51,879 bases of DNA from Polyangiales bacterium (GTDB lineage Bacteria > Myxococcota_A > Polyangia > Polyangiales > Ga0077539): the NCBI GenBank assembly GCA_044376155.1, contig JBILLI010000001.1, positions 1 through 51,879 of the forward strand. Direction: 5' to 3'. The notes below the pieces were generated by a model, which saw only the letters and a list, made by a program, of their open reading frames with translations, ran no database searches and was not told the DNA's origin. Numbering within the stretch: the first letter of the stretch is position 1; each line of letters begins with the position of its first letter. Shown here piece by piece: positions 41,204 through 43,900 of the stretch. The position numbers and the translations under genes are program-made.

Positions 41204-43900
41204 TCAGCGCAGCCCGAAGCCGCCGCCGAGCACGAACAGGCCCGAGCCGTGGCTCAGCGTGGGAGACGTGATGCCGAGCTCGCGGCCCGTGGGCAGGCCG
41301 TAGGTCGACAGCGAGCTCGGGATGGCGAAGCCCGGGATGGGGATCGCGGGCAGCGCGTCGTTGAGCGAGCGCGTGAGCAGGTCCTCGACGATGAGCCGCA
41401 CGGCGCGGGTGAGCGCGGTGCGCTCGGTGCCGGTGATCGACTGGCTCTCCAGCGAGATGTGCAGCTCGTCGAGGGTGATCCCGCCGAAGCGCAGGTCGTT
41501 GCCCATGAGGGTCACGGCGAGCGACGCCCGCGCGCCCACCGACACCGCGAAGGGCTGCGACGCGCCGGGCAGCGGGATCGACGCCGTGAGCCCACCGAGG
41601 TCGACCCCCATGCGGCCGTCGGTGCGGAGCTGCGCCACCGGCGGGAGCGCCGTGTCGATGCGCACGCGGGTGCCCTGCGGAAAGACGTCCCCGAGGCTGC
41701 CGACCGAGATGCTCGCGTCGAAGAACCCGCCGCGCCACAGCGCGTGGAGGGCCCCGTTGAGCACCGCCGGCTGCAGCGTCACGGTGGCGGGGCGGGTCAG
41801 CGCGACGGTGTCGCTCACCGCGGGCGGCAGGGCCACGCCGCGGCTGGTGGTGCCGCGCACGGTCATCGCGGTGAAGCGCGTGCCCAGGCCCAGCGACAGC
41901 CGCGAGGTGTTCGCGCTGAGCGACGAGAGCCCGAGGCCGAACTGCAGCGGGAGGGTGCCCATCCCATCGAGCCGCGGGACGTTGAAGCTCGCGCCGAGGC
42001 TGGAGACGTCGAGCCCGCCGAGCACGCCGTCGAGCACGCGGGTGAAGTTGTCGCTCACGTAGCTCCGCAGGGCGTCAGACACGAGGTTGCGCACGATGCC
42101 CTGCGCGAGCGAGGCCACGACGTTCACGATGACCCCGGTGAGGCCGCTGAAGTCGGTGCTGATCTGCCCCACGCTCACGGTGGTGGAGTTGGGTCGCACC
42201 ACCGCGCGCGGTCGCCCGCCCGAGGCGCTGAGGTCGAAGATCACCCCGACATCCACGGAGCGCACGGTGACCCACCCCGAGGTGCTGAGCGTGCCCGAGA
42301 TGCGCAGGCGCACGCGCACGTTCTCGAAGCGCACGTTGGCGCGCAGGCCGCCGTCGACCAGGGTCAGCGCGGTGGTGTTGGGCCCGTTGATCTCGCTGCC
42401 GTCGTAGTCGACCCGCGAGCGGAAGATGCACGAGCACCCCACGAAGGGCACGCAGACCTCCTGATCGCAGGAGTTCTTCAGCGGGTTCGCGGCGCGCAGC
42501 GCGGTGTCGAGCTGGGTGCGCAGCCCGGTGCTGTTCACCACGGTCTGGAGCACGTCGTCGAGCGAGGTGATGGGCGACACGGGGTCGCCGTCGTCGAGCG
42601 CCGACTGCGCGAGCCGCAGCGACACGCCGTTGTCGAGCAGCGAGGTCTCGGCGAGCCAGCGGTCCGACACGAGGTACGTGCAGGTGCGGCTGTTCTCCAG
42701 GCCGTTGGTGTCGGTGGCCTCGACGTCGACGAAGACCATGCCGAAGCGCGAGGGCACCGTGGCGGTGAACGTGCCGTCGTTGCCCGGGGTCACCGCCGCG
42801 CCGTTCACCGTCAGCGAGCGCACCCCCGAGGTGTCGCGCAGCGTGCCGCGGATCATCAGCGGCGCGCCCGGCGCGTGGTTCACCATGGTGACGTTGCCGG
42901 GCACCGTGCACGAGATCGCCGGGCCGCTGGAGTCGACCGTGAACGAGGTCGACTCCGAGAGGGCGACGCCCCCCTCGGTCATCCCTGTGACCCGCACGGT
43001 GATGGTGTAGCGCCCCTCCTCGGCGTAGCTGTAGACCCCGGGGCGGATGTTCATCCCCTGGGTCGCGGTGGCGTACTCCAGCGCGGGCATTTCGACGCGG
43101 TTGCCGAAGCGGTCGGTCACCGTGGCGACGACCTCGACCTCCTGGCCCGTGCGGTACAGCGGCTGATCGGGCGAGCGCGCGATGACCAGCCGCGCGGGCA
43201 GCGCCGCAGAGACCGTCAGCGTCGCCGGATCTCCCTGCGCCCCAGGCACTTCGCAGCGGACCATGAAGCTCCCGCTGCGCTCCGCGCGCACGGCGTTGCC
43301 GGTGACCGCCACGCCGTCGCCCGAGGGGGTCACGGCGACCCGCGGCGTCGCGTCGGTGATGGCGTTGCCCTCGGCGTCGGTCACCGCGCAGGTGGCGGTG
43401 GCGCTCTCGCCCGCGGTCATCATCGCCCGGTCGAGGGTGGTGGTGACCCGCGCGGGCGCGCCGGCGTCGACGCGAATCTCGGCGGGGGTGGCGTCGCTGA
43501 GCGACCCGAGGGCGCAGCGCGCGGTCACCGTGCCCACGCGCACCGCGGTGTACGTCGACCCGCTCGCGCGCACCGCGTCGGCGGGCGCGAAGGTCAGCGT
43601 CGGGGTCATGCCCGCGGGGGGCGCCACGTCCATGCCCGCGGCGTTGCGCAGCACGCAGCGCGCCATGATGACCTCGCCCGCCCGCACCCGCGTGGGCGCC
43701 TCGGTCTCGATCTGCGTCGCGGTGAGGTCAGGCCCGGTGTCGGCCGGACCCGCGTCAACCTCCTTCGGACCGGTGTCTGCGACCGCGACGTCGGCCGACC
43801 CGGCGTCGCCGGGGGTGTTGTCGATCACGGTCTCGCCCGACGTGTTGCTGCACGCGGCGACGAGGCAAAGCCCCAGGAGCGCAAGAGAGAGACGCGTCAT
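41204..43900 (-). CDS. Large lipoprotein: N-terminal Ig-like domains plus C-terminal tandem BPI/LBP/CETP-like (TULIP) domain (tentative)
   Basis: Lipobox LGLCLVAAC. Three similar roughly 90-aa beta-rich repeats (..ARCALG../..ATCAVTD../..VRCEVPG..). The C-terminal 480 aa shows a BPI-like order of motifs (see finding). The CDS itself is well supported by GC3 and length. Confidence 0.8.
   Translation of the reverse strand: [898 protein letters not shown]

Follow-up and report, generated by a model that had tools for sequence, protein, structure and literature searches.

A family of predicted myxobacterial lipoproteins with an Ig-like stalk and a C-terminal module resembling BPI, LBP and CETP

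Introduction

Can a bacterial lipoprotein carry a lipid-binding module built like that of human BPI, and if so, is it likely to act in the same manner? This question is raised by an open reading frame (ORF) in a 51,879-nucleotide stretch of DNA, hereafter called the window, from a Polyangiales bacterium (GenBank assembly GCA_044376155.1, contig JBILLI010000001.1, positions 1 to 51,879). The proteins BPI, LBP and CETP are central to innate immunity and lipoprotein metabolism in animals; BPI and LBP bind lipid A, and BPI kills Gram-negative bacteria. A preliminary description of the window, made by reading its sequence, had recognized in this ORF a lipobox, three immunoglobulin (Ig)-like repeats and a C-terminal region of about 480 residues that appeared to be a tandem BPI/LBP/CETP domain of the TULIP type, and had suggested that the protein might bind the lipopolysaccharide (LPS) of prey.

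The same description took two-barrel BPI-like proteins to be eukaryotic, a premise that is outdated given the DUF4403 domain (Levine 2019, PMC6791001), clusters of AlphaFold models (Barrio-Hernandez et al. 2023, PMC10584675) and the Bdellovibrio protein TipA (Caulton et al., bioRxiv 10.1101/2025.09.09.675085). Bacterial BPI-like double TULIPs are only beginning to be characterized, with one crystallized example that is described in a preprint. Here we define a large uncharacterized family of such proteins, with more than 1,000 clusters at 50% identity, whose best matches in the PDB are eukaryotic BPI, LBP and CETP, far above the clostridial TULIPs. It is an architecturally distinct new family within a recognized kind, and its arrangement of lipid anchor, four-domain Ig stalk and double TULIP, often encoded in an operon of two paralogs, has not yet been described.

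The C-terminal module is modelled as a BPI-like double TULIP

Two AlphaFold2 (AF2) models were computed without templates. That of the full-length protein, for which the alignment consisted of 38 family members only, has a mean predicted local distance difference test (pLDDT) score of 84.5, and that of the module alone (residues 416-898, 55 family sequences) has a pLDDT of 85.9 and a predicted template modelling (pTM) score of 0.82. From residue 415 onward, an interface strand leads into short helices, after which come long strands and a single long helix, and this order is run through twice, with extra strands between the two halves and at the end. In the N-terminal barrel, DSSP assigns the interface strand to residues 422-431, the helix A region to 447-470, a long twisted sheet to 475-584 and helix B to 590-627. 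The C-terminal part consists of strands at 637-678, helix A′ at 711-723, a sheet at 745-817, helix B′ at 824-847 and closing strands at 874-897. In both models, each half thus has the elements of a TULIP fold, namely helix A, a twisted antiparallel sheet and a helix B that is wrapped by this sheet.

When the module-only model was compared with the PDB by using Foldseek, the first rank was taken by BPI (1ewf; E = 2.5e-21, 518 columns), with a template modelling (TM) score of 0.63 when normalized to the query and 0.66 when normalized to BPI. Ranks two through five are BPI (1bp1), LBP (4m4d chain A, 1.7e-19), CETP (2obd, 3.5e-19) and LBP again (4m4d chain B, 1.3e-18). These alignments span 518 to 532 columns and cover BPI, LBP and CETP from end to end, such that two domains in one chain, with a central sheet, superpose over both halves. 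The next matches are the clostridial tandem TULIPs OrfX3, P47 and OrfX2, which are weaker in E value by at least 10 orders of magnitude, and further down the list are the single-barrel TULIPs SPLUNC1, JHBP, Der f 7, Takeout, YceB and Mdm12. All 23 matches at E ≤ 1e-3 are TULIP proteins, and the full-length model yields the same top five. Both models therefore support the assignment of the C-terminal module as a predicted double TULIP of the BPI/LBP/CETP type, in which two barrels would be joined by a central sheet. The tandem TULIP that was originally proposed, and its extent of some 480 residues, are in this way borne out, and the outcome named beforehand as fatal to the proposal, a fold unrelated to TULIP in a Foldseek search of an AlphaFold model, did not occur.

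Profile comparisons link the family to BPI and LBP

Searches of Pfam, NCBIfam and the PDB with the single sequence returned only a sub-threshold match to PF02886 and matches of Ig type, which are insufficient alone, and the protein does not reach the curated Pfam gathering thresholds for PF01273 or PF02886. A hidden Markov model (HMM) of the family was more informative. Against 177,635 PDB sequences it matches LBP (E = 6.6e-4) and BPI (E = 0.07), aligning the N-barrel region with residues 55-194 of LBP and 65-189 of BPI, and a profile restricted to the module matches LBP and BPI again. Among the 38 family members, 15 match Pfam LBP_BPI_CETP (PF01273) singly at E < 1 (best E = 3.8e-4), and one matches PF02886 (E = 0.0032).

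Direct comparison with BPI was made by HHalign, for which a BPI alignment of 21 amniote sequences was assembled; the BPI sequence used was verified against 1bp1. The family profile aligns to this BPI alignment with a probability of 90% (E = 1.7e-6, 259 columns), and a deeper family alignment gives 81% (E = 1.2e-5) over 322 columns that are collinear through both barrels. A reversed-alignment control yields 1.5%. Comparison with one single BPI sequence had given a probability of 3%, and it was replaced by the 21-sequence alignment. The HHalign register is identical to that of the original by-eye alignment (e.g. ISG...SGW..). Residues 641-898 contain invariant motifs, as evident in the columns of the family alignment, and the motif N-x-x-L-x-x-[GA]-[FI]-P-[LI]-P, which follows helix B′, is common to the family and BPI. 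We conclude that the similarity to BPI is confirmed to be far above chance. The Pfam and profile check that the preliminary description had proposed thus gives BPI and LBP matches with the family HMM, with individual members and with HHalign, whereas the 898-aa protein by itself stays below threshold.

Features associated with LPS binding by BPI are absent

The close resemblance in fold does not extend to the residues expected for BPI-style function. The Lys/Arg-rich tip of the N-barrel hairpin of BPI and LBP aligns to an uncharged Gly/Ser/Thr turn that is often followed by Trp, with the pattern G-T-(insert)-S/D-T-S/T-G-W. The net charge of the N barrel is -3 in the 898-aa protein and -7 as the family median, versus +14 for the N domain of BPI, and the whole protein contains two lysines according to per-domain counts. 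The N domain of BPI also has a conserved disulfide, Cys135-Cys175. In the HHalign alignments, the columns that correspond to both of these cysteines lack Cys in the family, which instead has its own Cys cluster in the N barrel (residues 478, 483, 489 and 491). Because the cationic tip, the positive N-domain charge and the disulfide are all missing, BPI-style LPS binding is disfavored, and electrostatic capture of LPS by this module appears unlikely. The suggestion that the protein binds prey LPS is disfavored on the same grounds, the tip turn being uncharged and the N barrel neutral to acidic. Judged by its sequence, the family is homologous to the BPI family and has the same architecture, yet it falls outside the curated membership and is without the LPS-binding apparatus.

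The hairpin tip (alignment columns at residues 533-554) varies by clade. It is short in the clade of the window (G-T-L-S-T-S-G-W), carries a longer insert in other clades (A-G-I-P-Y-D-T-T-G-W) and is Cys-rich in one subclade (C-G-T-T-C-C-I-G-G-S). Given this variation, the tip may be a specificity element.

A lipoprotein signal, an acidic tether and four Ig-like domains precede the module

The gene itself is well delimited (Table 1). Its ATG start, its stop codon (41204-41206) and its length of 898 amino acids are exactly as first reported from the ORF list, and all of the peptide strings that had been quoted are present in the translation. The GC content at third codon positions (GC3) is 0.96, which is typical of real genes in a window whose GC content is 73% throughout. 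The identical 898-aa protein is called independently on two metagenome contigs, on which the neighbors are also the same. AGGA, located approximately 10 nucleotides 5′ of the ATG, is a possible ribosome-binding site, and a scan for promoters and terminators found none. The host-like GC3, the presence of relatives in 89 genomes across Polyangia and Bradymonadia at 31 to 87% identity, and the 1,059 clusters at 50% identity together argue that the gene is native and old.

The gene is overlapped by several long ORFs that lie antisense to it or in another frame, including 41249-43915 (+), 41145-41738 (-) and 42075-42911 (-), with products of up to 888 aa. These overlapping and antisense ORFs were rejected as genes. 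They recur across homologous loci as BLAST 'clusters' and are by-products of 73% GC content and codon bias. Third-position GC separates the 898-aa gene from many such spurious high-GC ORFs.

Table 1. Coordinates of the gene, of its predicted parts and of two representative A/B gene pairs
Feature	Position	Strand	Basis
Whole gene, 898-aa lipoprotein, type 'A' Ig-stalk/double-TULIP (predicted)	41204..43900	-	ORF list, GC3, metagenome calls
Predicted signal peptide with lipobox, residues 1-17, LCLVAAC	43850..43900	-	Sequence read; feature conserved in most homologs
Disordered acidic tether, residues 18-58	43727..43849	-	pLDDT <50 for residues 1-58; charge count
Ig-like beta-sandwich 1, residues 59-146	43463..43726	-	AF2 strands 61-145, pLDDT ~90; FdeC-type profile match
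Ig-like beta-sandwich 2, residues 147-232, Big_1/MG2-like, invariant Cys171 and Cys216	43205..43462	-	Pfam, invariant cysteines, AF2 strands 149-231
Ig-like beta-sandwich 3, residues 233-325	42926..43204	-	AF2 strands 235-322; FdeC-like profile alignment to about residue 259
Ig-like beta-sandwich 4, residues 326-414, Glucodextran_B-like, invariant Cys331 and Cys407	42659..42925	-	Pfam PF09136; AF2 strands 329-412
N-terminal TULIP barrel (modelled), residues 415-640	41981..42658	-	DSSP of AF2 models; family HMM alignment; Pfam LBP_BPI_CETP matches in members
Central-sheet strands and C-terminal TULIP barrel (modelled), residues 641-898	41207..41980	-	DSSP; weak PF02886; HHalign collinear; invariant columns and motifs
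A/B pair, Minicystis rosea CP016211	L030:4696-7497 and 7494-9590		
A/B pair, Lujinxingia vulgaris	L081:4654-7440 and 7445-9631		

The N terminus carries a lipobox, VAAC (residues 14-17), that fits the pattern [LVI][ASTVI][GAS]C, and Cys17 is the residue predicted to be lipidated. This lipobox had been noticed at the outset and is real: most homologs with an intact N terminus have a signal peptide followed by Cys, usually in the context ...AAC-GDN. The 898-aa protein is accordingly classed as a predicted bacterial lipoprotein. The segment after Cys17 has a net charge of -8, and residues 1-58 are disordered in the AF2 model.

Where three Ig-like repeats had been claimed, the model has four beta-sandwiches. 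The second of these gives a Pfam MG2 match (E = 3.1e-5) and a weak Big_1 match with the 898-aa protein alone. The fourth, hereafter Ig4, matches Glucodextran_B (PF09136; E = 1.7e-6, 28.3 bits versus a cut-off of 27), as do 37 of the 38 family members in this position, and it always directly precedes the TULIP module. The family profile also matches the invasin/intimin-type Ig array of the Escherichia coli adhesin FdeC (4e9l, E = 9.4e-9), and the array matches S-layer and cadherin arrays as well. The invariant Cys pairs in the second and fourth domains, together with the Cys cluster of the N barrel, fit with export to an oxidizing location outside the cytoplasm.

The family appears confined to Myxococcota and often includes a second paralog

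A word-indexed search found 66 clusters at 90% identity, and an exhaustive profile search found 1,059 representatives of 50% identity clusters at E ≤ 1e-3, with 259 at E ≤ 1e-30. Details of the latter rest on the best 150 of the 1,059 representatives. All of these 150 are orthologs; they are mostly about 850 to 950 aa long, and nearly all have the module at the C terminus. In contigs sampled at one genome per species, 89 relatives were confirmed, the closest being from a Polyangiales metagenome-assembled genome (87% identity). Carriers include Polyangiales, Sandaracinaceae, Kofleriaceae, Haliangiales, Labilithrix and Minicystis rosea, and, among the Bradymonadia, Lujinxingia vulgaris and Persicimonas. 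Wherever a listed record is classified more finely than 'Proteobacteria', it is assigned to Myxococcota or to the legacy Deltaproteobacteria, and from these records the family appears to be confined to Myxococcota, including Bradymonadia. No Myxococcus or Sorangium copy turned up in a pattern-based contig scan, which can miss divergent copies. Wherever a descriptive name is given, these proteins are called hypothetical, save for two automatic labels (Glucodextranase domain B; YejL), and searches of the literature that paired TULIP or BPI with myxobacteria returned nothing on this family.

At approximately one third of the related loci (27 clean pairs, or about 35 with partial ones, of 81 loci), the gene described here, termed A, is followed by a paralog of roughly 700 to 740 aa, termed B, whose start usually overlaps the stop of A by 4 nucleotides. 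This paralog is the sole recurrent conserved neighbor across the 81 loci. B proteins carry a lipobox signal, and so they are also predicted lipoproteins. Their C-terminal module is homologous to the double TULIP of A (HHalign probability 99.5%, 403 columns), and Ig4 abuts this module in B as it does in A. Two B proteins were scanned with Pfam, and both have a Glucodextran_B-like domain, one of them with a Big_1-like domain in addition. These observations suggest that A and B form a pair. The window copy and its subclade (at least 57% identity) have no adjacent B, and a tblastn search found no A- or B-type paralog elsewhere in the window, such that A occurs alone in this subclade.

Comparison with known double TULIPs

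BPI, LBP and CETP (PF01273 plus PF02886; 1bp1/1ewf, 4m4d and 2obd) are the best structural matches of the module (E of 2.5e-21 to 1.3e-18). They share with it the two-barrel pseudo-dimer, the order of elements in each half, the central sheet and an extracytoplasmic location. The animal proteins are soluble and secreted, whereas the myxobacterial protein is bacterial, is predicted to be lipid-anchored, and has a tether and four Ig-like domains before the module. The Cys cluster at residues 478-491, in place of the BPI disulfide, is a further difference.

Among bacterial proteins, TipA of Bdellovibrio bacteriovorus (Bd2538) is the closest in kind, being a crystallized BPI-like double TULIP with an adapter, TipB (Caulton et al., bioRxiv 10.1101/2025.09.09.675085). 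TipA holds lipids, binds bilayers and destabilizes membranes, and it is opened by TipB, a beta-sandwich protein; its authors also note double TULIPs fused to beta-rich domains in the AlphaFold database (bioRxiv 10.1101/2025.09.09.675085). Like the myxobacterial family, TipA is bacterial, exported and from a predatory lineage, and its best structural matches are likewise BPI, CETP and LBP. Both systems have a beta-sandwich partner, which in Bdellovibrio is a separate protein from an adjacent gene and here is fused before the N barrel. By contrast, TipA is reported to be secreted into prey and was expressed as the mature protein without its signal peptide, with no mention of a lipoprotein anchor; it lacks an Ig stalk, and it homodimerizes through an inserted hairpin. 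TipA is set apart from the myxobacterial family on its published description, and no TipA entry appeared in our PDB profile and Foldseek searches. No gene for a small C2-like beta-sandwich adapter of the TipB type is conserved beside the family genes at the 81 loci.

DUF4403 (PF14356), of approximately 460 aa, was predicted to be a full-length bacterial homolog of BPI with a pseudo-dimeric TULIP (Levine 2019, PMC6791001). It shares with our family the predicted BPI-like double TULIP and the beta-meander interface but is described as the domain alone, without an Ig stalk. The 898-aa protein does not match DUF4403 at E ≤ 10. The 38 members match 32 Pfam families at E ≤ 1, and DUF4403 is not one of the 25 that are matched most often. 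Because 15 of the 38 match LBP_BPI_CETP, the family looks nearer in sequence to the BPI family than to DUF4403. Clostridial P47, OrfX2 and OrfX3 (5wix, 9arl and 8bgm) are also bacterial proteins with tandem TULIP-like domains (Foldseek E of 2.5e-9 to 2.5e-5), but their matches are worse than those of BPI, LBP and CETP by at least 10 orders of magnitude, with TM scores of 0.19 to 0.35. They differ further in having Gram-positive hosts, in lying in neurotoxin gene clusters, and in being neither lipoproteins nor equipped with an Ig stalk.

Human BPI has also been found to cluster with bacterial AlphaFold models, for example A0A2D5ZNG0 with a TM score of 0.81 on full-length BPI (Barrio-Hernandez et al. 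2023, PMC10584675). Bacteria of the Deltaproteobacteria, Planctomycetes and Acidobacteria are among the species abbreviated in a figure legend of that article. The cluster, which we compare by its description, is reported as one of structural look-alikes only, without a family definition, architecture or distribution.

A proposed function and its alternatives

To our knowledge, every characterized TULIP holds a hydrophobic or amphipathic lipid, and it is from this shared behavior that we infer lipid holding and transfer here. We consider it probable that the 898-aa protein is a lipid-anchored, stalk-mounted protein for lipid binding or lipid transfer that does not act on LPS in the manner of BPI. 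The protein would be exported and anchored through an N-terminal lipid at the predicted Cys17, and its acidic, flexible tether and four Ig-like domains would form a stalk that presents the double TULIP. The module would hold a lipid in putative apolar barrel pockets and, outside the cytoplasmic membrane, would pick it up from one membrane and deliver it to another membrane or to a protein. By analogy with other TULIPs, such shuttling is plausible. With about 4 nm for each of the four domains and about 13 nm for the module, to which the tether adds, we estimate a reach of at least 30 nm. Ig arrays of the invasin, intimin and FdeC type are typically extracellular stalks. Given the length of the stalk and the type of its Ig domains, it would project away from the membrane of its anchor, with the cell surface as the probable site.

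Several observations weigh against this proposal. Taken alone, the 898-aa protein matches PF02886 with E = 0.12 (12.3 bits versus a cut-off of 23) and has no match to PF01273 at E ≤ 10. The root-mean-square deviation from BPI is approximately 7 Å at about 14% identity, which, together with the TM scores given above, indicates that the geometry differs from that of BPI. Clustering of neighbors at the 81 loci reveals no conserved gene that points to a pathway, and the restriction of the family to predatory lineages may be mere phylogeny.

The sequence and modelling results bear on the notion that the module is not a TULIP at all, but a generic beta-rich adhesin domain whose resemblance to BPI is due to chance or to a modelling artefact. 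The weak single-sequence Pfam match, the 3% probability against one BPI sequence and the fact that the models are predictions could be cited in its favor. However, the HMM-to-PDB search, the Pfam matches of members, HHalign with its reversed control and two template-free AF2 models all agree on a TULIP, and we regard this explanation as extremely improbable and already effectively refuted. A surface-tethered weapon that binds LPS or lipid A and thereby recognizes or permeabilizes Gram-negative prey would suit the fact that BPI and LBP are the closest structural relatives, that carriers belong to predatory groups of Myxococcota, including Bradymonadia, and that TipA from the predator Bdellovibrio binds and destabilizes membranes (bioRxiv 10.1101/2025.09.09.675085). 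This would be very unlikely for a protein with an uncharged tip turn, an N-barrel charge of -3 or -7 rather than +14, two lysines and no Cys in the BPI disulfide columns, and which would be tethered to a producer that itself has an LPS outer membrane. Distinctly unlikely as well is a carrier that, like the single-barrel TULIPs JHBP, Takeout or the beta-carotene-binding protein, would serve small hydrophobes such as carotenoids, signals derived from isoprenoids or fatty acids, or secondary metabolites. These three proteins are among the significant Foldseek matches, one family member has a weak Pfam JHBP match, and Myxococcota make many lipophilic metabolites. Two-barrel BPI, LBP and CETP nevertheless match better by at least 10 orders of magnitude, and the gene is linked to no biosynthetic cluster, its neighborhood being unconserved.

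Location is the point on which our proposal has its most serious competitor. The protein might instead face the periplasm. Its anchor would then lie either in the inner membrane or in the inner leaflet of the outer one, and stalk and TULIP would span the periplasm to shuttle phospholipids between the membranes. Such an arrangement would resemble that of the SMP and ERMES TULIPs at eukaryotic contact sites or, in bacteria, the Mla, Let, Pqi and YhdP systems. In its favor, a TULIP of E. coli, YceB (3l6i), is itself a lipoprotein, the estimated total reach is close to the width of the periplasm, the authors of TipA argue likewise from the 25-26 nm length of their TULIP dimer (bioRxiv 10.1101/2025.09.09.675085), and Levine 2019 (PMC6791001) discusses where predicted bacterial TULIPs are located. 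Against this stand the typically extracellular role of the Ig arrays, the absence of any conserved inner-membrane partner or ABC/MCE component beside the gene, and the need for a flexible 30-nm protein to thread the peptidoglycan. None of these points is decisive, and we judge a periplasmic orientation to be somewhat unlikely, while favoring the stalk-mounted lipid carrier at the cell surface.

A bolder scenario combines several of these elements. The Myxococcota family would be the closest prokaryotic sister of eukaryotic BPI/LBP/CETP, and A, elsewhere with a translationally coupled B, would form a stalk-mounted, tip-to-tip TULIP conduit at the surface for extracting or exchanging lipids between cells, for example in harvesting lipids from prey or in outer-membrane exchange among kin, with the sandwich before the N barrel opening the barrel as TipB does. 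We hold this combination to be unlikely. Its last element comes from the position of Ig4, which in A as well as in B always adjoins the N barrel, and from this one may speculate that Ig4 is a fused counterpart of TipB. If the sister-group relationship were true, the family would bear on the origin of the eukaryotic two-barrel TULIPs, and it offers a data point on a bacterial origin of that family. It also offers a tractable bacterial model for the loading and unloading of lipids by double TULIPs, and it is a candidate component of cell-envelope lipid handling in predatory or social bacteria. Even if the protein is merely a generic lipid carrier, a useful annotation is gained for approximately 480 residues to which no domain is assigned at present.

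Gene neighborhood and other observations in the window

The gene is flanked upstream by a gene for a YndJ-like membrane protein and downstream by genes for TrmO and a phosphopantetheinyl transferase, with SPFH and methyltransferase genes further off. The product of the YndJ-like gene (43956-45725, minus strand; Pfam E = 3e-46) is a polytopic membrane protein that carries about 260 additional residues at its C terminus. A gap of 55 bp separates the end of this gene from the TULIP gene, which follows it on the same strand, and the two may be co-transcribed. An operon or pathway link to the YndJ-like, TrmO or phosphopantetheinyl transferase genes was considered and rejected, as these genes are not conserved beside homologs except for TrmO in the 87%-identical relative. 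A cluster of neighbors present at 21 loci was also rejected as a partner. Because its positions and orientations vary, and because its member in L002, the one locus with Pfam calls, is a protein kinase, it was taken to be a common paralog family.

The rest of the window contains housekeeping and regulatory genes and no lipid-transport cluster. The SPFH/Band_7 protein (45770-46912, plus strand) has a possible lipobox near its N terminus, and the adjoining gene (46913-48370, minus strand) encodes a PKMT-like methyltransferase with regulatory and winged-helix domains. A 2,124-aa ORF (32081-38455, minus strand) contains about 30 Cys-rich repeats (CGxCGxxC...NGCE), after which FG-GAP repeats occupy the C-terminal part (Pfam E = 1.6e-22), and its hydrophobic N-terminal segment suggests export. 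At this locus the GC3 filter favored an overlapping plus-strand frame (33822-37685) instead, and the ORF is thus given as a candidate coding frame. Finally, a 338-aa ORF (38557-39573, plus strand), for which a hydrophobic N-terminal segment suggests secretion, has a weak match below threshold to the C-terminal domain of the Golgi casein kinase Fam20C (E = 7.7e-4), and its product is possibly a bacterial relative of the secretory-pathway kinases.

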